Shown here one piece after another: positions 1,261 through 14,754 of a stretch of DNA of 14,754 bases (positions within the stretch are counted from its first letter, which is position 1; every line of letters begins with the position of its first letter). This stretch comes from a virus (taxonomy: Duplodnaviria; Heunggongvirae; Uroviricota; Caudoviricetes): the IMG/VR virus record IMGVR_UViG_2660238499_000008; one strand, written 5' to 3'. A program made the position numbers and the translations under genes. The notes below the pieces were generated by a model that did not search any database, was not told the DNA's origin, and was given only the letters and a program-made list of their open reading frames with translations.

Positions 1261-1354
1261 CCGAACAGATTGAGCCTAGCCCGACGGGGCGAAAAGTGGG
1301 AAGCCTTACCGCCTGGCTCAATTCTTTTTAAGGCAAAGCGTAGAAGGTGACGCA

Positions 1355-2188
1355 ATGGCATTACCAAAAAGGAAATATTACTCGCTTGAAAAAGCAGCGA
1401 AAGAATTGGAATGTGATGTTGATGATTTGCTTCATTATGCATCTTTAGGAATTCTACAGATTTGTGTCTACATAGAAATAAATGAAGATGAGGGCCTCTC
1501 CGAATGCTTCATAGACTCTGATGTTGACGATGAATTACTCGAATCTCTTAGCAGTGATGTTGATCCAACTCCATTAAGATGGGCTACTGAGTTAAATTAT
1601 ATAGTAGAAGATGCAGGGTTTTTCCTTTTGTCGAGAAGAGATGATGATTGTGATTCAAAGATAAACTCAGCAGGGGGATTTTTTGCGCTCAATCATACTG
1701 AGCTATCTACTCCAAAATTTGAAAAAGATAGAAAAATCGAAGTTTTTTCTCTTGGGCACTTGAGAGAGCATTATCACATTGTCAGTGGCAATCAATTTGG
1801 CGGAAGCACGCCAGGATATGAGCCGGGAAGCATTCTTTTTTACAAGCCACGAAAATTCGAAATTCATGACTTTTGCATCACATTGCCTGAGCTAGAGTTA
1901 TTGAAAAAAGGCGGAGAAAATCTACTTCATTCTGCATTTGGTTATAATCACCGTTCCTCTGAACTAATCGGTAGGAAAAAAGAAAATTTCTCAAAGCATA
2001 AAGCTTCCCTAATCAGATCTCTCACTGAACTGGCTTTTGTAAAGGATGGCGGGATTTCAAAACTTTCAATGGAATCAATAGCGGATCAATTACAACGAAA
2101 ATTTATGGACGCAGAGATAGATTATGATGATTTAAGTCCTTCAAATTTAAGGAATTGGTTAGGTACTGGCAGAAAGGATAAAATTTAA
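1355..2188 (+). CDS. Hypothetical protein, AT-rich cargo gene; possible N-terminal HTH, acidic linker, C-terminal domain of unknown function
   Basis: 277-aa ORF with purine-rich RBS (gaaggtga) about 6 nt before the ATG. Visibly AT-rich and different in codon usage from flanking GC-rich genes. N-terminus (YSLEKAAKELECDVDDLLHYASLGILQ) loosely resembles excisionase/AlpA-type HTH (inference only). Long acidic stretch (DSDVDDELLESLSSDVD, RRDDDCD). No recognisable catalytic motif. Confidence 0.65.
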   Translation: MALPKRKYYSLEKAAKELECDVDDLLHYASLGILQICVYIEINEDEGLSECFIDSDVDDELLESLSSDVDPTPLRWATELNYIVEDAGFFLLSRRDDDCDSKINSAGGFFALNHTELSTPKFEKDRKIEVFSLGHLREHYHIVSGNQFGGSTPGYEPGSILFYKPRKFEIHDFCITLPELELLKKGGENLLHSAFGYNHRSSELIGRKKENFSKHKASLIRSLTELAFVKDGGISKLSMESIADQLQRKFMDAEIDYDDLSPSNLRNWLGTGRKDKI

Positions 2189-2940: not shown

Positions 2941-3774
2941 ATGAACATCGAAAAAAGCAGATTAATTTCTGAGGCCGCCCCTCATCTGAACGCCTATCAG
3001 GGCACAATTAACGGTAATGAATTTGCCGCAATTGTCCCGGTTATTCCTGGTCATATCGGTGGGCGTGAAACCAATATTGTTAGCGCAAAAGCGTTACACA
3101 AAGCGTTGGGCGTGGGAAAAGACTTCTCTACATGGATCACTGATCGCATCTCTGAATATGACTTCACCATTGGGCACGATTACTCAGTCCATAAAACAAT
3201 TTCCCCAAATCTGGGGAAAAGCCCGAATGGCGCGGCTTACAGCAAGATTAAACAGTCTGGCAGACCCGGCAAAGACTATCTGTTAAGTGTCGGAATGGCG
3301 AAAGAACTGGCAATGATCGAACGCACCGAACAGGGCCGCGCTATCCGCCGTTATTTCATCCAGTGCGAGGAAGAATTACAGCGTAGCGTGCCTGAAATCG
3401 CCGCCCGCTATCGTCGCCAGCTAAAAGCCCGTATCAGTGCCGCCAACCTGTTTAAACCGATGTGCGTAGCGCTGGAAAGCGCCCGCGCAGAACAGGGTAA
3501 ACAGACGCAGGCTCGCCACTACAGCAACGAGAGCAACATGATCGCCCGTATCGTGCTGGGTGGCATGACGGCGAAGCAGTGGGCGCAGGCAAATGGCATT
3601 ACTGGCGAACCACGGGACAGCATGAACGCAGCACAGCTTGAACACCTCGCCTATCTCGAAAGCACCAATATCACGTTAATTGATATGGGTATGGGATATG
3701 ACCTGCGTAAAGCCGAGCTAATCCGCCTCTCTCAGCGCTGGTTAGCTAAACATCTGGGGGCTAATCATGCTTAA
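2941..3774 (+). CDS. Phage antirepressor, AntA-like N-terminal domain plus KilA-C (ANT) C-terminal domain
   Basis: 277-aa ORF, RBS ggag 6-7 nt upstream. N-terminal segment (NIVSAKALHKALGVGKDFSTWITDRISEYDFTIGHDY) resembles the AntA domain. Central segment (GRPGKDYLLSVGMAKELAMIERTEQGRAIRRYFIQCEEEL) resembles the KilA-C antirepressor domain. Confidence 0.82.
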   Translation: MNIEKSRLISEAAPHLNAYQGTINGNEFAAIVPVIPGHIGGRETNIVSAKALHKALGVGKDFSTWITDRISEYDFTIGHDYSVHKTISPNLGKSPNGAAYSKIKQSGRPGKDYLLSVGMAKELAMIERTEQGRAIRRYFIQCEEELQRSVPEIAARYRRQLKARISAANLFKPMCVALESARAEQGKQTQARHYSNESNMIARIVLGGMTAKQWAQANGITGEPRDSMNAAQLEHLAYLESTNITLIDMGMGYDLRKAELIRLSQRWLAKHLGANHA

Positions 3775-3945
3775 TGCCGCCATCCAGAATAAAGCCTTTC
3801 CCCTGGCTGGCCTGATGTATGCAAATGTTAACGTCTGGAGCAAAGCAGCCCGCCGCCAGATTGCGACAAATAGCGACGTTTGGAACCTGTCAAAACCTGA
3901 CATTTGCCACCGCCAGATCTTTACAAATCTTGGTGTTTTCGGGAC

Positions 3946-4176
3946 AAGTACGCACGCGCATGAATGCGAAGCTGGCATAACAGTGCCAGCTAATGCCATC
4001 TCCTCATTTTCTCGTCGTGGTGACGAGGAGAGTTTCGAGACCAGTACGCGCACGAAGATTTATTGGGGGTCACTACGCGAGGAAGATTTTCCCATCATCA
4101 CTACACGAGGCGGGAAGATTTTTCTGACATCACCACTAGATGCAGGGAATTTATGCAACAGTACGCGCACGCGCGA
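3946..4176. repeat. Repeat-rich, probably non-coding region: three direct copies of GTACGCRCRCG and three degenerate tandem ~30-bp units (GAAGATTT...TCACTACRCGAGG)
   Basis: GTACGC(A/G)C(A/G)CG at 3948-3959, 4044-4054 and 4161-4175. Tandem ~30-bp units at about 4052-4082, 4081-4110 and 4113-4142. A GC-stem/UUCG-loop hairpin at about 4388-4407 followed by a U-rich tract. The 311-aa ORF the track draws across this region has low-complexity, non-protein-like composition. Confidence 0.5.
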
Positions 4177-4510
4177 AGGTGAGTTTCTGGAGTCCATAAA
4201 AAAGGGCTTGCCGACTATCGCCAACCCGGTTTATGGTTATAGCGCACCAGCAAAATCTGGTGTCGGGATTGGAACCCCGAACACACTAAGGGCGACACAG
4301 ACGCCGAAAGCGTCTTTTTTTGTGTCCATTCACTACGCACATCAAATCAGCGGACTTACCCGTACTGTATCAATGGTGGCGTTAGTGGGGCTACGTTCGC
4401 GTAGGCCGGTTTCCTTTGTGTCCGGTAGTTCCAACCCTGCTAACGTCACCGCCACTATTAAGATTGGAACCTTATGCGGTGACTCCTTAAACACAAAGGA
4501 GGCTGCCATA

Positions 4511-4702
4511 ATGGCTACTACCCCTACCCAAAAACCGCAATTTATCTGGATTATCGCAGCAGTTCGCCGCGATATGCCGACAATTACCGCCAAAATTCAC
4601 CATATCGCCGCAGAGACTGAGCAGGAAGCCCGCCGCATTCTGGCGCGGGATCACGTTTGCTTTTTTGCCGGACGTATTCGCACAGGGGGCGCACATGCTT
4701 AA
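4511..4702 (+). CDS. Small protein, possibly host cell-division-inhibitor Icd-like
   Basis: 63-aa reading frame (MATTPTQKPQFIWIIAAVRRD...ARRILARDHVCFFAGRI) with its own strong RBS (aggagg 8 nt before ATG at 4511), embedded at the 3' end of the long track ORF 3767-4702. The Icd-like assignment is from recalled similarity to small proteins of P4-like prophages and is not verified. Confidence 0.45.
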   Translation: MATTPTQKPQFIWIIAAVRRDMPTITAKIHHIAAETEQEARRILARDHVCFFAGRIRTGGAHA

Positions 4703-6077: not shown

Positions 6078-6419
6078 ATGATTACTAAAAATTTCCGACT
6101 GAATGCGCTGGCGAATAAGTATGCGTCGGCACTGTATAACCACATTACCTCCACCAGCGGCGGTGACTATTTCATGGTTGATGCGGACGGCCTCGCCGTC
6201 CGTGTGGAAATCGTCAATGGAGTAAAAGGCTTTCGCAGCCTGATCGATAGCTACACACTGGCAGCCATGAAAGTGTCCTACCCGCAGTGGGAAACCGTGG
6301 GGATCGCGCTTCTTGAGCGTTGCGTCACTAAGGACGGATTAACTGACGTCGGGCGCGAGATATGGCAAAGCATGGTTAAAGACATGGGCGCGACCGTGGC
6401 AGGGGGCAACCATGCGTAA
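6078..6419 (+). CDS. Hypothetical protein
   Basis: 113-aa ORF with strong RBS (gaggggg); its stop overlaps the primase start (ATGCGTAA). Confidence 0.6.
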   Translation: MITKNFRLNALANKYASALYNHITSTSGGDYFMVDADGLAVRVEIVNGVKGFRSLIDSYTLAAMKVSYPQWETVGIALLERCVTKDGLTDVGREIWQSMVKDMGATVAGGNHA

Positions 6420-9177
6420 TATCGATCTTATCCGCGAAGTGACCAGTGCCGCCGCCGGGCGCTGGCCTTATGTGCTGGCTGGATTGTCTATCGACGTGCC
6501 TGATTCATCGCGCCGCCATTCTCCATGCCCTGCATGTGGTGGAAAAGACCGTTTCAGATTCGACGACAACGGGCGCGGTAGCTTTATCTGCAATCAGTGT
6601 GGCGCTGGTGACGGTTTAGACCTGATTAAGAAGGTGAACAACTGCGACACTACGGAGGCGGCACAGCTTGCCGCTGATGTGCTGGGTATTGATTACCGGG
6701 CAGCGCAAACCGACCCGGTGGCAGCGAGCCATAGAAGAGAGCAACTGGAAGCTGACCGCCAGCAGCGTGAGCAGGAGCGCCAGAAACAGGCAGCAGAGGA
6801 TGCAGAGCAGCGAAGGGCTACGTTTGCCCGTCTGTATGCCGGAATGCGCCAGAGTGCCACACAGGGAGAATCTGATTACCTGCAATCAAAAGGGCTGACC
6901 GGGTTTAACTATCCGGTTATGCCGGATGGTTCGTTATTGCTGGAGCTGGTGGACGAATCCGGCGCAGTGGCAGCAGCGCAAACCATTACACCGCAGGGAG
7001 AGAAGCGACTCCTGACAGGTTCAGCAAAGCGCGGGGCATATCACGCCGTAAACGCACCAGAACAGCCGCAGAGCGTATTAATTGCCGAGGGGCTGGCGAC
7101 GGCCCTGTCCGTTCACCTGATGCGCCCGGACGCGCTTACAGTGGCGGCAATTGACGCCGGGAACCTGATCCACGTTGCCGGAGTAATGCGCCGGAAACAC
7201 CCGCAGTCGCAAATTATCATTGCCGCAGATAACGACCACCAGCAGGACGAACAGGCGAACACGGGCAAAGATGCCGCAGAGAAAGCCGCCTTATCCGTGG
7301 CTGGCTGGGTGGCGCTGCCGCCGACAGACTACAAAGCCGACTGGGACGACTACCGCCAGCAAAACGGGCTGGAAGTCGCTACGGCTGCGTTTAACGATTC
7401 GATGTACCAGATTCAGGGGGAAGCCGTGAAACCGCGATTGCAAGCCATTGAGGGCGGTAAAACTGACCATCCAGAGAAAGACCCACTAAAACCCCACATT
7501 GAGAGCCGAAAAGATGGCGTTTTCTGGGTAACGCCGAAGGTGGACAAGGAAAGCGGGGAGATCATCAACGCTGAAAGCTGGTTATGTTCACCGCTGGAGG
7601 TTATCGGCACGGGACGCGACGACAAAGATCAGTATCTTATTATCTCATGGCTGGCATTTGGTGCAGGCATACCGACAACAGCGGCTATCCCGCTGGCTGA
7701 TATTGGCGAGCGTGAAGGCTGGCGCACCCTGAAAGCTGGTGGCGTCAACGTCACAACGAAAAACAGCCTACGGGCGATTCTTGCCGACTGGTTACAGCGA
7801 AGCGGCTCGCGTGAATTGTGGCGCGTTGCTCATGCTACAGGCTGGCAGTGCGGGGCATACATCATGCCGGACGGGGAAATCATCGGCACACCTGAGCGGC
7901 CTGTTTTGTTCAGCGGGCGCAGTTCAGCCGCTGCCGGGTATACCGTAGCAGGAACGTCGGAAAGCTGGCGTAACAGTGTTGCGCGGCTGGCATACGGTAA
8001 TTACGCGATGATGACAGGCATCGCCGCAGCACTGGCAGCGCCATTAATCGGGGTGGCAGATCGTGACGGATTCGGGATTCATTTTTATGAGCAATCGAGC
8101 GCCGGGAAAACAACCACGCAGAACGTGGCGAGCAGTCTATACGGCAACCCTGATGCCTTGCGCCTGACGTGGTACGGGACGGCGCTGGGGCTGATAAACG
8201 AGGCCGCCGCCCACAATGACGGGCTGATGCCACTGGATGAAGTCGGACAGGGCGCTGACCCGATAAGCGTTTCTCAGTCTGCCTATGCCCTGTTTAACGG
8301 CGTGGGGAAATTGCAGGGAGCAAAGGAAGGAGGCAACCGGGATCTGAAACGCTGGCGCACCGTGGCAATCAGCACCGGGGAAGTGGACTTAGAAACCTTC
8401 ATCGCCACCGCCGGACGCAAGACCAAAGCCGGGCAACTGGTGCGCTTGCTGAATATCCCGTTAAGTAAGGCGGTGCGCTTTCATGAACACCAGACAGGGA
8501 AAGAACACGCCGACGCGCTGAAAGATGCTTATCAGCACCATCATGGCGCTGCCGGGAGGGAGTGGATCAGATGGCTTTCAGACCACCAGCAACAGGCGAT
8601 TGATGTCGTTCGTGAGTGTGAAGCCCGCTGGCGCAGTCTAATCCCTGCCGACTATGGGGAACAGGTTCACCGTGTAGGGGCAAGATTTGCCATTCTGGAG
8701 GCCGCTTTACTGATGGGTGGCGTGGTTACTGGCTGGGATGCTCAAACGTGCCGGGATGCGATACAGCACGCCTATAACGCATGGCTAAAAGAGTTCGGCA
8801 CGGGGAACAAAGAGCACCAGCAGATCATCGAGCAGGCGGAGGCATTTTTAAATGCCTATGGCCTGAGTCGATTCGCGCCGCTGCCTTACGACCCCGCCAG
8901 CCTGCCGATTCATAATCTGGCTGGATACAGGCAGCGCGGAAATCATGACGATTCACCGATAACGTTTTACACGTTCCCCGACACTTTCGATAAGGATATT
9001 GCTAAGGGGTTTAACAGGCAGCAGGTGGCCCGCGTCCTGAAAGAATCGGGGATGCTTACCCCTTCAGCAGACGGAAAAAAATTTCAGAGGAAAAGCCCGC
9101 GCATTCAGGGGAGGCAGATTAACGTTTACGTTTTGCAATTCCTGCCGGATGGGGAGGAAAGCCAGCCAGGGCAATAA
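6412..9177 (+). CDS. Replicative primase-helicase (P4 alpha-like): N-terminal zinc ribbon, TOPRIM domain, C-terminal Walker-A/B NTPase
   Basis: 921-aa ORF. Zinc-ribbon CPACGG...FICNQCG near the N-terminus. TOPRIM-like acidic motifs (IAEGLATA; IIAADNDHQQDE). Walker A-like SSAGKTT and Walker B-like LMPLDEV in the C-terminal half. Immediately followed by an iteron array. Confidence 0.9.
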   Translation: MRNIDLIREVTSAAAGRWPYVLAGLSIDVPDSSRRHSPCPACGGKDRFRFDDNGRGSFICNQCGAGDGLDLIKKVNNCDTTEAAQLAADVLGIDYRAAQTDPVAASHRREQLEADRQQREQERQKQAAEDAEQRRATFARLYAGMRQSATQGESDYLQSKGLTGFNYPVMPDGSLLLELVDESGAVAAAQTITPQGEKRLLTGSAKRGAYHAVNAPEQPQSVLIAEGLATALSVHLMRPDALTVAAIDAGNLIHVAGVMRRKHPQSQIIIAADNDHQQDEQANTGKDAAEKAALSVAGWVALPPTDYKADWDDYRQQNGLEVATAAFNDSMYQIQGEAVKPRLQAIEGGKTDHPEKDPLKPHIESRKDGVFWVTPKVDKESGEIINAESWLCSPLEVIGTGRDDKDQYLIISWLAFGAGIPTTAAIPLADIGEREGWRTLKAGGVNVTTKNSLRAILADWLQRSGSRELWRVAHATGWQCGAYIMPDGEIIGTPERPVLFSGRSSAAAGYTVAGTSESWRNSVARLAYGNYAMMTGIAAALAAPLIGVADRDGFGIHFYEQSSAGKTTTQNVASSLYGNPDALRLTWYGTALGLINEAAAHNDGLMPLDEVGQGADPISVSQSAYALFNGVGKLQGAKEGGNRDLKRWRTVAISTGEVDLETFIATAGRKTKAGQLVRLLNIPLSKAVRFHEHQTGKEHADALKDAYQHHHGAAGREWIRWLSDHQQQAIDVVRECEARWRSLIPADYGEQVHRVGARFAILEAALLMGGVVTGWDAQTCRDAIQHAYNAWLKEFGTGNKEHQQIIEQAEAFLNAYGLSRFAPLPYDPASLPIHNLAGYRQRGNHDDSPITFYTFPDTFDKDIAKGFNRQQVARVLKESGMLTPSADGKKFQRKSPRIQGRQINVYVLQFLPDGEESQPGQ

Positions 9178-13494: not shown

Positions 13495-13742
13495 GGCTGG
13501 CTGATTCCTTATTGTGGGATAGCGGTATCATACAATAAGGCGCAAAAGATAAGAGGCCAGAACAGCAAGCATGAGAGCATAAAATGAGCAGCCAAAGACA
13601 GCACCTCAAAATACCGTGTACACAAGGGTGTACCTACTTAGAAAACGCATTACAAGGAATCCAGTAACCACGCGGCCTAGAGACTCCTACTCAATAAACA
13701 GATTCAGACTCGTAACGCCAATTCTTACTTTTCAGCCTTCAC

Positions 13743-13778
13743 AAATGCCGCCCACTCAAACAGAGCGGCATTTTTCTT
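13743..13778 (+). terminator. Putative intrinsic terminator (8-bp stem AATGCCGC/GCGGCATT, about 13-nt loop, then TTTTTCTT)
   Basis: Inverted repeat 13744-13751 / 13765-13772 followed directly by a T-run. Lies about 150 bp upstream of dinD; the loop is larger than typical, so confidence is moderate. Confidence 0.45.
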
Positions 13779-13868
13779 CCCCGCAACTTTCAATTCTGTT
13801 TTGCGTGCCTGCTCCAGATTTTGCGATGTCTTTTTGCCCAGCACACTGAGAACGTGAGACACTCACAA

Positions 13869-13884
13869 CTGTATATAAATACAG
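13869..13884 (+). promoter_or_regulatory. LexA operator (SOS box) CTGTATATAAATACAG of dinD
   Basis: Perfect CTGT-N8-ACAG match to the LexA consensus with an AT-rich centre, 46 bp upstream of the dinD start codon. Confidence 0.88.
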
Positions 13885-13929
13885 TTACAGATTTACTTTC
13901 TTTGCAATCGATATCACATGGAGTGGGCA

Positions 13930-14754
13930 ATGAACGAACATCATCAACCTTTTGAAGAAATACGGCATTATGGCACTGAAGGGCAAGAATTTTGGTCAGC
14001 GAGAGAATTGGCACCGTTACTGGATTATCGGGACTGGCGCAATTTTCAAAAGGTACTTGCCCGCGCGACTCAAGCGTGCGAAGCCAGCAATCAAGCTGCA
14101 TCTGACCATTTCGTTGAAACCACCAAAATGGTTGTATTAGGTTCAGGGGCTCAACGAGAACTTGAAGATGTTCATCTCTCCCGCTATGCCTGTTACCTGG
14201 TAGTACAAAACGGCGACCCTGCGAAACCGGTTATTGCGGCAGGACAAACTTATTTTGCTATCCAGACCCGACGGCAGGAGCTGGCTGACGATGAAGCTTT
14301 CAGGCAACTTCGTGAAGACGAAAAGCGTCTTTTTCTGAGAAATGAATTGAAAGAACATAACAAACAATTAGTTGAGGCAGCGCAGCAAGCTGGGGTAGCG
14401 ACAGCTATCGATTTCGCCATATTTCAGAATCATGGTTACCGGGGGCTGTATGGTGGATTAGATCAGAAAGCCATCCATCAGCGGAAGGGGCTGAAAAAGA
14501 GTCAGAAGATCCTGGATCATATGGGTTCAACAGAACTGGCGGCTAATCTCTTTCGAGCTACCCAAACAGAAGAAAAACTTAAGCGGGATGGCGTGAATTC
14601 AAAACAGCAAGCTAACACCACACACTTTGACGTAGGTCGCAAGGTGAGGCAAACCATTCAGGAACTTGGCGGAACCATGCCTGAGGAGTTGCCGACCCCG
14701 CAGGTCAGCATTAAGCAGTTGGAAAACAGTGTAAAAATTACAGAGAAAAAATAG
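13930..14754 (+). CDS. dinD: DNA-damage-inducible protein D (DinD), core chromosomal SOS gene
   Basis: 274-aa ORF from ATG 13930 (RBS ggag 6 nt upstream; the track ORF starts 4 codons earlier at 13918). N-terminus MNEHHQPFEEIRHYGTEGQEFWSARELAPLLDYRDWRNF matches my recollection of Escherichia coli DinD. Preceded by a consensus LexA box. Stop codon is the last 3 nt of the window. Confidence 0.88.
   Translation: MNEHHQPFEEIRHYGTEGQEFWSARELAPLLDYRDWRNFQKVLARATQACEASNQAASDHFVETTKMVVLGSGAQRELEDVHLSRYACYLVVQNGDPAKPVIAAGQTYFAIQTRRQELADDEAFRQLREDEKRLFLRNELKEHNKQLVEAAQQAGVATAIDFAIFQNHGYRGLYGGLDQKAIHQRKGLKKSQKILDHMGSTELAANLFRATQTEEKLKRDGVNSKQQANTTHFDVGRKVRQTIQELGGTMPEELPTPQVSIKQLENSVKITEKK

Follow-up and report, generated by a model that had tools for sequence, protein, structure and literature searches.

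The interval between the integrase gene and alpA of a satellite raises a plain question, namely whether the gene found there is passenger cargo or part of the element's own machinery. We addressed it for a 277-aa gene in the window, by which we mean the whole 14,754-nt stretch of viral DNA that was analysed (IMG/VR record IMGVR_UViG_2660238499_000008).

The slot gene and its host element

The window holds a roughly 13.7-kb PICI-type satellite between yicC and dinD, a placement that is also seen in E. coli relatives, in which the integrase adjoins yicC. The gene set of the island (int, alpA, AntA, Icd/Ash with the isrK and C4 RNAs, and a DUF927 primase) is the same as that of EcCIMP1. It has the features of Gram-negative PICIs, i.e., int, alpA and primase/replicase genes in one orientation, a length in the range of ~10–18 kb and no structural or lysis genes. 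Helper-phage induction and packaging have been demonstrated for the related EcCIMP1 and EcCICFT073 (PMC11773190, PMC6092414). The master activator of Gram-negative PICIs is alpA (PMC6092414, PMC11773190); helper phages induce it, and for these elements neither the inducing route nor a global repressor is known (PMC6092414). The accounts of well-studied PICIs consulted here treat them as int-alpA-pri elements and leave a gene of the slot type unmentioned.

The slot gene, X, extends from 1355 to 2188 (ATG at 1355, TAA at 2186–2188) and is preceded by a Shine-Dalgarno sequence, AAGGTG (1344–1349, + strand), which was read from the sequence, lies within the conserved leader and is invariant in the alignment. 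Directly upstream is the gene for a tyrosine integrase of 419 aa (1–1260; Pfam Arm-DNA-bind_3, Phage_int_M and Phage_integrase), and downstream is alpA (67 aa, 2288–2491; Pfam HTH_17 and Phage_AlpA), the proposed target of the cassette described below. All three genes are on the + strand. A sequence-only reading of the locus had noted a sharp drop in GC content and a different codon usage relative to both neighbours, and the computed values bear this out. X has a GC content of 0.368 and a GC3 of 0.284, as compared with 0.50–0.58 and 0.50–0.64 for the rest of the island genes. In sliding windows GC falls steeply from 0.51 to 0.37 at ~1350 and is back at 0.53 by ~2250. The composition is also foreign by CAI (reference, island pool), which is 0.61 for X versus 0.68–0.80 for most genes; one other low-CAI island gene is o125 (0.59). 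AT-richness extends to the whole protein family described below (median GC of alleles 0.40, n = 36) and is thus not a mark of recent one-off acquisition.

X had also been called an orphan, and this status persisted in our searches: the full-length protein had no family match in Pfam, NCBIfam or PADLOC and no match in PDB, and a PHROGs search gave marginal hits only (E = 0.02–0.05). No family at E ≤ 10 was returned by the defence models of PADLOC-DB 2.0, and the protein has neither an enzymatic nor a toxin motif. The exact window allele was present in 0 of 5,426 complete E. coli genomes; the search recovered just one protein of 99% identity (P0001) and one metagenome contig (L017), where the slot ORF is intact and identical to that of the window.

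The slot protein family, its leader and its architecture

An exhaustive HMM search yielded 214 representatives of the slot-protein family, typically 240–330 aa long (43 at E < 1e-10), and hhalign matched the N-terminal domain of the window protein to that of the PCN061 allele with E = 2e-8. Only ten proteins were obtained from a second, word-indexed protein search and only two loci from a degenerate-pattern scan of species-representative genomes; tblastn gave one N-terminal match, in a Klebsiella plasmid, among plasmids and none among phage genomes. Pfam searches with 68 family members produced no match and no HTH domain at threshold, and neither the whole-family profile nor that of the C-terminal module retrieved a PDB sequence below E = 0.06. 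In the literature we found no description of the slot-gene family and none of a repressor protein for Gram-negative PICIs, and the family appears undescribed.

The int-X-alpA arrangement was followed in loci L001–L007, L010, L011 and L012 (alpA was not called in L006). A co-oriented gene of 272–321 aa fills the int-alpA slot in nine of nine annotated related loci, which span three integration sites, two integrase types and two replicase types. Family-positive alleles lie on the same strand between a tyrosine integrase and alpA in the window, L003–L007 and L010–L012. The slot of L001 and L002 is occupied by a 293-aa allele that is not recognised by the family profile and is the commonest type sampled here (E. 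coli). It was rejected as a homologue of the window protein, as BLASTP and hhalign detected no homology; the two have position and size in common, and their C-terminal pattern is similar by eye only.

Ahead of X lies the int-alpA RNA motif (Rfam RF02996; 1269–1334, + strand), which scored 61.8 bits against a gathering threshold of 35.8 (E = 4.8e-12) over the full-length model (1–71). The Rfam entry is a candidate sRNA named for its flanking genes, and the window leader is a clear member. The motif ends 20 nt before the ATG of X, the spacing being 20–21 nt generally, and is placed alike relative to the slot-gene ATG in L003, L004, L005, L008 and L009. The slot ORF begins at a fixed, conserved ATG after the motif in 51 of 52 motif-bearing loci, 53–59 nt past the start of the search pattern. 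Complete ORFs of >150 aa are present at 47 motif-bearing loci and encode 36 distinct proteins; the slot ORF is truncated or frameshifted at a few loci (L024, L026, L034/L044). The constant position of the motif 20–21 nt upstream of the slot start codon suggests a cis-acting leader of the slot gene, or a 3' element of int, and as a slot-gene leader this orphan Rfam motif would gain a genomic role. A simple int terminator is not supported, since the RNA fold is no stabler than shuffles (z = -0.9) and the T-run is not conserved.

The intergenic DNA up to and including the ATG is >90% conserved across alleles with unrelated coding sequence. In most alleles a conserved N-terminus of 40 aa precedes a middle that diverges strongly, and a shared three-helix module forms the C-terminus; similarity was detectable by BLASTP in 90% (N-terminal segment), 7% (middle) and 12% (C-terminus) of representative pairs. 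The N-terminal domain is kept at the protein level despite DNA divergence and is absent from a few slot alleles (L015, L052, L056); residues 1–40 of the window protein fit the family motif M-x-L-P-x-R-x-Y-Y-x-L-x-x-A-A-x-x-L-x-C-x-x-x-D-L-x-H-x-A. The site next to the integrase had been taken for a cargo hotspot, to be checked by comparison of related elements. The comparison showed that slot content does vary between relatives; the part of the claim that fell is unrelated cargo, as the slot holds a single family behind a fixed ATG. Clear homology to a housekeeping satellite function, conserved here in all relatives, had been named as evidence against cargo. It applies in part, in that relatives have a homologous gene at this position and most alleles share the N-terminal domain and the C-terminal module. 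X is one allele of a fast-evolving family and is probably an exchangeable regulator of alpA, not random defence cargo; its product would belong to the core integration/regulation zone of an enterobacterial PICI-type lineage. This defines a protein family without a Pfam, NCBIfam or PDB counterpart.

A first structure prediction from a 5-sequence alignment was discarded (pLDDT 47). The AlphaFold model from a 68-sequence alignment (mean pLDDT 87.5) has two domains and a disordered linker, and the proposed Foldseek comparison gave no significant fold match for it. The conserved N-terminal segment (aa 1–42, 1355–1480) is modelled as a winged-HTH-like strand-helix-helix-strand (strand 8–10, helices 11–17 and 22–30, strand 37–42; pLDDT 95–98), in agreement with the HTH-like segment suspected earlier. 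Sequence matches are only sub-threshold, to HTH_17 and MerR in one of 11 N-termini (E = 0.07–0.2, best 0.068), and Foldseek found local, non-significant N-terminal matches to HTH and TorI-like proteins. P4, Y8, Y9, A14, C20, D24 and H27 are conserved in 84–96% of sequences and C37 in 69%. The divergent remainder of domain 1 (aa 43–195, 1481–1939) is beta-rich, is a candidate sensor or effector part and has no fold match in PDB or BFVD; in alignments the domain ends in I-T-x-x-E-L-x-L-L-K-x-G-G (aa 174–187). A previously postulated acidic linker (about aa 44–70) does not agree with the model, in which this region is folded (pLDDT 81–93) and the disordered inter-domain linker is aa 196–213 (1940–1993; pLDDT <50 at 204–208). 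The C-terminal three-helix module, of type A (aa 214–270, 1994–2164; helices 214–227, 239–252 and 262–270), has the signature …GGISKLSMESIA.QLQ.KF…SPSNLRNWLG. All four segments are encoded on the + strand. A long acidic loop, unusual for a classical HTH, separates helices 2 and 3. The window protein thus shows the two-module build, i.e., a domain 1 ending in E-L-x-L-L-x-x-G-G, a linker and a three-helix module ending in …T-x-x-x-W/Y-L. C-terminal modules of different types align with each other; searched against Pfam they gave noise only, and against PDB no match.

Repeats upstream of alpA follow the C-terminal module

The stop codon of X is overlapped by a palindrome, ATTTAAAACTTT-C-AAAGTTTTAAAT (2183–2207), which is perfect (12+1+12) and which we propose as a distal operator. 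The perfect 17-bp palindrome first reported at 2187–2203 is real, and its extent was understated, the arms being 12 nt long. Its centre lies ~59 nt upstream of the alpA leader, and in the window its 15-mer core and near-matches are confined to this site (4 overlapping versus 0.52 expected). A third half-site read from the sequence, AAAGTTT (2216–2222), lies 20 nt after the second and overlaps a weak -35-like TTGCTT (2221–2226). TTTAAT (2245–2250, + strand) is a candidate -10 hexamer of the alpA promoter by manual reading, and other alleles have A/T-rich hexamers at its place. A consensus promoter scan of 1100–2500 called no sigma-70 promoter at threshold, and where the sites lie with respect to the alpA start is thus a guess. 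The alpA leader contains a conserved inverted repeat, ACCCGTAAC … GTTACGGG (2254–2283, + strand), identified by alignment and a repeat finder, with the alpA Shine-Dalgarno sequence AAGGAG (2271–2276) between its arms; this inverted repeat is the right-hand limit of the variable cassette.

Each allele is followed, upstream of alpA, by its own repeats or palindromes, usually 20–21 bp apart (L003, L004, L007, L010, L011, L012). Repeats directly 3' of the stop codon had p ≤ 0.04 versus shuffles in 13 of 17 alleles (Fisher combined p = 8e-15), and the mid-gene control had p = 0.62. At L018 and L015 the inverted repeat also resembles an intrinsic terminator.

The AlpA HTH is identical in L001, L003 and L004, and their repeats are unrelated. 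The window and L005 have the same palindrome after a type-A allele, with slot proteins that are 32% and AlpA proteins that are 41% identical. The repeats hence do not track AlpA, because loci with the same AlpA differ and loci with 41%-identical AlpA agree. The slot proteins of L009 and L018 have identities of 18% in the N-terminus, 22% in the middle and 71% in the C-terminus, and their repeats, GGTACAGT-N6-ACTGTACC and GGCACAGT-N6-ACTGTGCC, differ by a symmetric change within unalignable flanking DNA. The corresponding pair of repeats in L010 and L012 is GTGATATCAC versus GTGAAATCAC. L021 is a mosaic: its identity to L004 is 93% in the N-terminus and 78% in the middle, its C-terminus and repeats resemble those of L003, and the switch between parents is located at the linker equivalent, just past the GG motif. 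The repeats follow the C-terminal module, and neither AlpA nor the N-terminal domain, and modules are naturally swapped at the linker. Since the repeats adjoin the DNA that encodes the C-terminus, the two may co-vary in part by hitch-hiking. We infer that the three-helix module is the DNA-binding and specificity module of the slot protein; in the Pfam and PDB profile searches no slot-protein domain had a significant match to a known DNA-binding family.

Possible roles of the cassette and comparison with known systems

The reading that we tentatively prefer, and to which we give slightly less than an even chance, is a modular cassette of regulator and operator by which alpA is controlled and the helper phage possibly sensed. 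The variable unit would begin at the second codon, right behind the conserved ATG, would stop ~35 nt short of the conserved alpA leader and would comprise the protein together with the repeats or palindromes that each allele has in the region of the alpA promoter. X would be expressed from the int side via the conserved int-alpA RNA leader. Its C-terminal three-helix module, probably as a dimer or oligomer, would bind the cognate repeats, the putative sites in the window, between -35 and -65 upstream of the alpA leader, being the palindrome at 2183–2207 and the half-site at 2216–2222. Binding would set the activity of the alpA promoter and would therefore control excision and replication of the island. 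The N-terminal domain (aa 1–195), whose core is conserved and whose surface varies, would be the input domain and may recognise a helper-phage product, so that the helper to which the island is coupled would depend on the allele, or related satellites would become hetero-immune. We infer DNA binding by the C-terminal module, the regulation of alpA, be it repression or activation, and helper sensing. A counterpoint is that the C4/isrK RNA immunity module of the element could already supply repression.

A broader version, which we regard as doubtful, would make the slot family the missing helper-phage sensor of many Gram-negative PICIs, as a one-component regulator of unseen fold whose exchangeable N- and C-terminal modules gate alpA, with the int-alpA RNA as leader. 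If this is true, allele swapping at the linker would rewire helper-satellite induction and create hetero-immune satellite types. Helpers induce alpA in Gram-negative PICIs, for which neither a repressor nor a sensor is known (PMC6092414), and the slot family is a testable candidate for the missing link by virtue of its position directly upstream of alpA, its exchange together with promoter-proximal repeats and its hypervariable putative input domain.

It is unlikely that X is cargo that alone encodes anti-phage defence or abortive infection, or that it serves helper interference or superinfection exclusion, with diversification driven by an arms race with phages and with repeats that are only promoter or terminator elements of the neighbouring genes. 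Such a gene could well be AT-rich, adjoin a satellite integrase and have an extremely divergent middle (7% of representative pairs detectable); immune systems carried by PICIs are cited in PMC13586616, and EcCIMP1 has superinfection immunity via an unidentified gene (PMC11773190). In EcCIMP1, however, the slot is taken by EcCIMP1_002, whose product is a different, small protein that is mis-annotated as UvrB-like and was rejected as a member of the slot family. The slot is also filled by one gene family with a fixed start codon and leader, not by diverse systems, PADLOC gave no match, enzymatic and toxin motifs are absent, and a pure effector role leaves unexplained why the repeats track the C-terminal module. 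Among the roles initially suggested for X, i.e., defence, anti-defence or sensor-regulator cargo, that of a sensor-regulator fits best, whereas PADLOC revealed no defence or abortive-infection signature. A foreign-composition signal beside an integrase can thus flag a core, fast-evolving regulatory cassette instead of defence cargo, which has a bearing on automated defence-island and hotspot mining.

Less probable still is that the repeats are bound by a helper-phage transcription factor that activates alpA, with the slot protein as a co-adapted partner (e.g., an anti-repressor or helper modulator) and not the binder. Ogr/Delta are phage activators that act in this manner at P4 late promoters. 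Induction of alpA by an unknown helper factor (PMC6092414), the location of the sites upstream of the -35 region, where activators bind (by manual geometry), and a C-terminal module with no recognisable DNA-binding signature are all in line with this explanation. It demands, however, that a protein module and the site of a phage factor are always co-swapped, even at the linker breakpoint, and the symmetric compensatory change between the L009 and L018 palindromes, together with their 71%-identical C-termini, fits a cis-encoded cognate pair.

We consider it very improbable that the slot protein assists site-specific recombination as an accessory factor, i.e., as an excisionase-like directionality or architectural protein acting with Int and AlpA. 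Its gene is directly downstream of int behind a conserved leader, with co-transcription possible, and Foldseek matched the N-terminal strand-helix-helix-strand locally to HTH and TorI-like proteins; these matches, like those to Pfam, are non-significant. The repeats are ~2.2 kb from the int-proximal att end and outside the attP arms, and the Xis-like role in PICIs is already filled by AlpA (PMC10111431). The N-terminal domain is moreover kept across two integrase families and 26%-identical AlpA proteins, and its constancy across integrase families argues against a specific Int partner. That X is a decaying or non-functional remnant, its composition drop and repeats being neutral leftovers of recombination, is hardly credible: truncated or frameshifted slot ORFs (L024, L026, L034/L044) and the rarity of the window allele would suit it, and against it are an intact ORF that is identical in an independent metagenome contig and has a 99%-identical copy elsewhere, 47 motif-bearing loci with complete ORFs of >150 aa, a deep alignment that gave a confident structure prediction, and an N-terminal domain conserved in protein while the DNA diverges.

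The preferred reading, a regulator plus operator cassette at alpA, was compared with known systems. YfjH of the E. coli K-12 prophage CP4-57 (318 aa) also lies between intA and alpA; it is on the opposite strand, had an hhalign probability of 0.8% against the family profile and was rejected as a family member. With the AlpA/Vis/Xis/TorI proteins (HTH_17, Phage_AlpA) the slot N-terminus shares a predicted strand-helix-helix-strand of 40 aa, and it resembles HTH_17 in the pattern xxLxxAAxxLxxxxxxLxxxxxxGxL. It differs in being packed in a 195-aa domain and in its conserved C20, D24, H27 and C37, for which we could establish no link to the AlpA type. Neither PF12728 nor PF05930 was matched at gathering threshold (full protein, no match; best N-terminal fragment, E = 0.068), and hhalign with the AlpA of the window revealed no relationship (probability 0.3%).

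Lambdoid immunity cassettes exchange regulator and operators between otherwise near-identical genomes and have paired sites about two helical turns apart. Low-GC regions, sharp homology breaks, joint exchange of regulator and operators and paired sites at this spacing are shared by the lambdoid cI/cro cassettes and the slot cassette, which differs from them in its protein family and in being a single gene with intra-protein shuffling at the linker. From SaPI Stl and the Rpr of Gram-positive PICIs the slot protein differs in lacking sequence or fold similarity and an XRE-type HTH, no Pfam HTH domain reaching threshold in 68 members, and its gene is co-directional with the gene to be regulated, whereas the master repressors are transcribed divergently from the str/xis operon. 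Its specificity module is apparently C-terminal, and its predicted target is the activator alpA. Shared with Stl and Rpr (PMC6092414) are the location beside int in a satellite, extreme divergence between related islands, modularity with a variable part and a DNA-binding part (putative in the slot protein), island-specific repeats before activation/excision genes, which for the slot protein are putative operators, and the proposed logic of coupling each island to particular helper phages.

The satellite and its AT-rich slot gene

The window starts with a tyrosine integrase gene (int; 1–1260, +), followed by the slot gene and, directly after it, alpA (2288–2491, +), which encodes an AlpA-type HTH protein. 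An AntA-domain protein, an Ash/Icd-like region and small ORFs (all +) lie between alpA and a Toprim/DUF927 primase (6412–9177, +), with more small genes beyond and the host gene dinD from 13918. The same island is flanked by yicC and dinD in E. coli genomes. Its gene set is that of EcCIMP1, a characterised phage-inducible chromosomal island (PICI; PMC11773190), which identifies the element as a Gram-negative PICI-type satellite. The G+C content falls to 0.44 at 13500–13950, just ahead of dinD (13918–end), and this stretch is likely the right end of the island (attR). An isrK RNA (4244–4320, +, 76 bits) and a C4 antisense RNA (4369–4456, +, 81 bits), a pair also found in the related loci L003, L004, L005, L009 and L011, form a P1/P4-type RNA immunity module. 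Both lie within the 311-aa 'Ash/Icd-like' ORF 3767–4702, which is probably over-called.

The slot gene runs from ATG 1355 to TAA 2186–2188 (+; 277 aa), with an AAGGTG ribosome-binding site 5 nt before the ATG. Its description as AT-rich and deviant in codon usage, made in the sequence-only reading, was borne out: GC is 0.368 and GC3 0.284, as compared to 0.50–0.58 and 0.50–0.64 in all other island genes, and the codon-adaptation index, derived from the island's own genes, is 0.61 versus 0.68–0.80 for most genes. An identical copy of the ORF is present in a second sample. The body of the ORF was found in none of the complete E. coli genomes, in which conservation is limited to the 95-nt int–ORF spacer. 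The protein had no matches in Pfam, NCBIfam or PADLOC and at best marginal ones in PHROGs.

An int-alpA RNA (RF02996; Rfam, 61.8 bits, E = 5e-12), entered in Rfam as an sRNA, lies at 1269–1334 (+). The motif ends 20–21 nt before the slot ATG in the window and in L003 (motif at 4289–4355), L004 (4289–4355), L005 (7914–7980), L008 (3915–3980) and L009 (3916–3979), and is present in 202 of 5,426 complete E. coli genomes. Motif, Shine-Dalgarno sequence and ATG are conserved and the slot coding sequence is not. This fixed spacing ahead of diverging coding sequence looks like that of a cis-acting leader of the slot gene or a 3' element of int; the predicted fold of the leader was no more stable than shuffled sequences.

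One slot and one modular protein family

Each related island has a single gene in the slot, in the same orientation and of about the same length; it encodes 293 aa (strains 64.1 and PK6), 281 aa (S43, L003) or 307 aa (PCN061, L004). Upstream DNA is >90% identical through the ATG and diverges immediately thereafter, and conservation returns ~35 nt ahead of the alpA start codon. Scanning metagenomes with a 22-nt int-alpA-motif pattern recovered 47 contigs, which together with other loci gave 52 motif-bearing loci; the slot ORF started 53–59 nt past the start of the search pattern in 51 of these and was truncated or degraded in a few. The 47 loci with a complete ORF of >150 aa encoded 36 distinct proteins in at least 12 unrelated-looking groups. 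All slot alleles are AT-rich (median GC 0.40 versus 0.53 in the flanks), so low GC is a property of the slot and not of the window allele alone. The order int, slot gene, alpA was found in six loci from five homologues (L006 without an alpA call), which vary in integration site, integrase (419 versus 392 aa) and replicase (DUF927 versus DUF5906). The proposal of a cargo slot beside the integrase thus held in that contents vary among relatives, but the slot always contains one similar-sized, co-oriented gene and is not a cargo dump. 'Orphan cargo' is a misleading label for what is a positional core component of the satellite lineage.

A word-indexed search of 5.8 billion proteins returned just four relatives, and an exhaustive profile search 214 cluster representatives with E < 1e-3 (43 with E < 1e-10), mostly of 240–330 aa. 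The family to which ORF 1355–2188 belongs is widespread but undescribed, modular and hypervariable, and this allele of it is rare. When 132 full-length representatives were compared pairwise by BLASTP, 90% of pairs were detectable over residues 1–45, 7% over the middle and 12% over the final 75 residues. Residues P4, Y8, Y9, A14, C20, D24, H27 and G108 are kept in 84–96% of sequences and C37 in 69%. The window and PCN061 alleles have the N-terminal domain in common (hhalign E = 2e-8), the S43 allele shares it weakly (6e-4), and the 293-aa allele of 64.1/PK6 was not recognised by family comparison. The last 70 residues could be aligned across several apparent types as a single module of three helices (K-T…L-I-x-x-L-L…G-I-x-F-P…T-x-x-x-W-L). 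None of 68 members had a Pfam domain, and neither the family profile nor the C-terminal-module profile matched PDB sequences. Source annotations, where given, were hypothetical proteins from Pluralibacter, Serratia, Rosenbergiella and Kosakonia. Neither Pfam nor hhalign placed the slot protein in the AlpA/Xis family, and YfjH, encoded between intA and alpA in K-12, and EcCIMP1_002 are unrelated to the slot protein. The sole plasmid match, a hypothetical protein on a Klebsiella variicola conjugative plasmid (NZ_CP063404.1, 338354–338488), has its N-terminal 47 residues in common with the family (E = 2e-5, 55% identity). The family, or just its N-terminal domain, is therefore found occasionally away from chromosomal satellites.

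AlphaFold modelling was poor with five sequences (pLDDT 47) and confident with 68 (pLDDT 87.5, pTM 0.70). Domain 1 (residues 1–195) is predicted to open with a winged-helix-like strand-helix-helix-strand, in agreement with the HTH-like N-terminal segment suspected earlier, and to continue as a beta-rich body closing with ELxLLKxGG. A disordered linker (residues 196–213) and a C-terminal module of three helices (214–270) follow in the model; the acidic stretch at about residues 44–70, previously read as a linker, is predicted to be folded. No DNA-binding signature was detected in either domain. C20 (84%), D24 (91%), H27 (96%) and C37 (69%) are arranged as C-x3-D-x2-H-x9-C in the 'winged-helix' segment (1355–1480, aa 1–42), and this arrangement may bind metal or be redox-active instead of marking a plain DNA-binding helix.

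Repeats upstream of alpA follow the C-terminal module

Allele-specific repeats lie directly 3' of each slot-gene stop codon. In the window, the palindrome noticed at the 3' end is real but larger than first described (ATTTAAAACTTT-C-AAAGTTTTAAAT, 2183–2207, overlapping the stop codon), and a third half-site, AAAGTTT (2216–2222), lies 20 nt downstream of a palindrome half-site. The other alleles carry TCGCACCGAAAA / TTTTCGCTGCGA (L001, a 293-aa allele), two copies of TGA(T/C)AATAAAATTTA at 21-bp spacing (L003), GGAATT half-sites at 21 bp (L004) and, in annotated homologue loci, two copies each of TTGGGA(T/A)TCCCA at 20 bp (L007), GTGATATCAC at 21 bp (L010) and TGGAATATT at 20 bp (L011), or GTGAAATCAC / GTGATTTCAC (L012). 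Repeats were enriched at p ≤ 0.04 in 13 of 17 alleles in a shuffle test (Fisher's combined p 8e-15; mid-gene control windows, p = 0.62). By manual count, site centres lie ~32–64 nt before the conserved ACCCGTAAC at the start of the alpA leader. A promoter scan of 1100–2500 called none.

The repeats track the C-terminal module and neither AlpA nor the N-terminal domain. The AlpA HTH region is the same in L001, L003 and L004 and their repeats are unrelated, whereas the window and L005 share the palindrome with AlpA only 41% identical, which uncouples the repeats from AlpA. L021 is 93% identical to L004 in the N-terminus and 78% in the middle and nonetheless has L003-like repeats, so these are not tied to the N-terminal domain either. 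This metagenome contig (ERZ773228 NODE-119) is a natural chimera, PCN061 type in residues 1–232 and S43 type in C-terminus and repeats, with the switch right after the GG motif, that is, in the predicted linker. L009 and L018 are 18% (N-terminus), 22% (middle) and 71% (C-terminus) identical and carry a palindrome GG(T/C)ACAGT-N6-ACTGT(A/G)CC, changed symmetrically within otherwise unalignable DNA. A shared C-terminal type goes with a shared GTGA-WWT-CAC core in L010 and L012, and shared type A with a shared palindrome in the window and L005. From these cases, C-terminal module and repeats move and evolve as a unit, and domain 1 is exchangeable; as the two are physically adjacent, part of the co-variation could be hitch-hiking.

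Short alleles (213–223 aa; contigs L015, L042, L052, L056 and L059) are without the conserved N-terminal domain and retain a C-terminal module (…APSVAAIKKWLNSAGI); the AAAAAGGGGT/ACCCCTTTTT inverted repeat 3' of them could double as a bidirectional terminator. A further conserved inverted repeat, ACCCGTAAC … GTTACGGG (2254–2283, +), brackets the alpA Shine-Dalgarno sequence, is common to E. coli relatives with differing slot genes, and could act as a hairpin in the alpA mRNA leader that governs translation, or as a site of AlpA autoregulation. The C-terminal half of the window AlpA is identical to that of E. coli relatives and the N-terminal HTH half differs (SHLGVHVTTVDRWVREKRIPAP versus ELLGVSVSTIDRKVRNGSLPRP), a split which suggests mosaicism reaching into alpA.

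A putative regulatory cassette and its known analogues

Gram-negative PICIs have AlpA as their master activator; helper phage induces alpA transcription by an unknown route, and no global repressor is known (PMC6092414). The cassette is thus located where such control would act. Most plausibly, if still tentatively, it is a regulator-plus-operator cassette acting on alpA: the slot gene would encode a modular regulator whose C-terminal module binds cognate repeats in the alpA promoter region and whose N-terminal domain supplies the input. We infer DNA binding, control of alpA and helper sensing, and would leave the sign to either reading, since sites at about −35 to −65 would suit an activator as well as a repressor occluding the −35 region. 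Weak points of the regulator reading are the terminator-like inverted repeats of some alleles, the adjacency of module and repeats, the missing promoter call and DNA-binding signature, and the alleles without N-terminal domain.

The hypervariability and AT-richness of the slot would also fit single-gene defence, exclusion or interference cargo, which we regard as unlikely given that PADLOC found no match, one family occupies the slot and the repeats co-vary with the protein. Less probable still, the repeats would be helper-phage activator sites with the slot protein as a co-adapted partner. There is little to recommend a recombination accessory factor, as the repeats are distant from the att ends and the N-terminal domain is kept across differing integrase families. 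A pseudogene or remnant is very improbable in view of the identical copy in a second sample and the confident fold from a deep alignment.

The PICI 'integration zone' has been described as int plus alpA, and the literature found on it does not mention the slot family (PMC10111431); a protein repressor of Gram-negative PICIs was likewise sought in the literature and not found. The interest of the putative regulatory cassette is that it brings the induction of Gram-negative PICIs within reach of direct tests. Its kind is already known from satellite and phage regulatory and immunity cassettes, and the protein family is without known relatives. The nearest functional analogues of the cassette are the immunity cassettes of lambdoid phages and, in Gram-positive PICIs, the Stl/Rpr master repressors. 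Unlike these, the slot protein has no XRE-type HTH and no detectable homology to them, and thus is not a member of either group, and the slot gene is co-directional with its proposed target.
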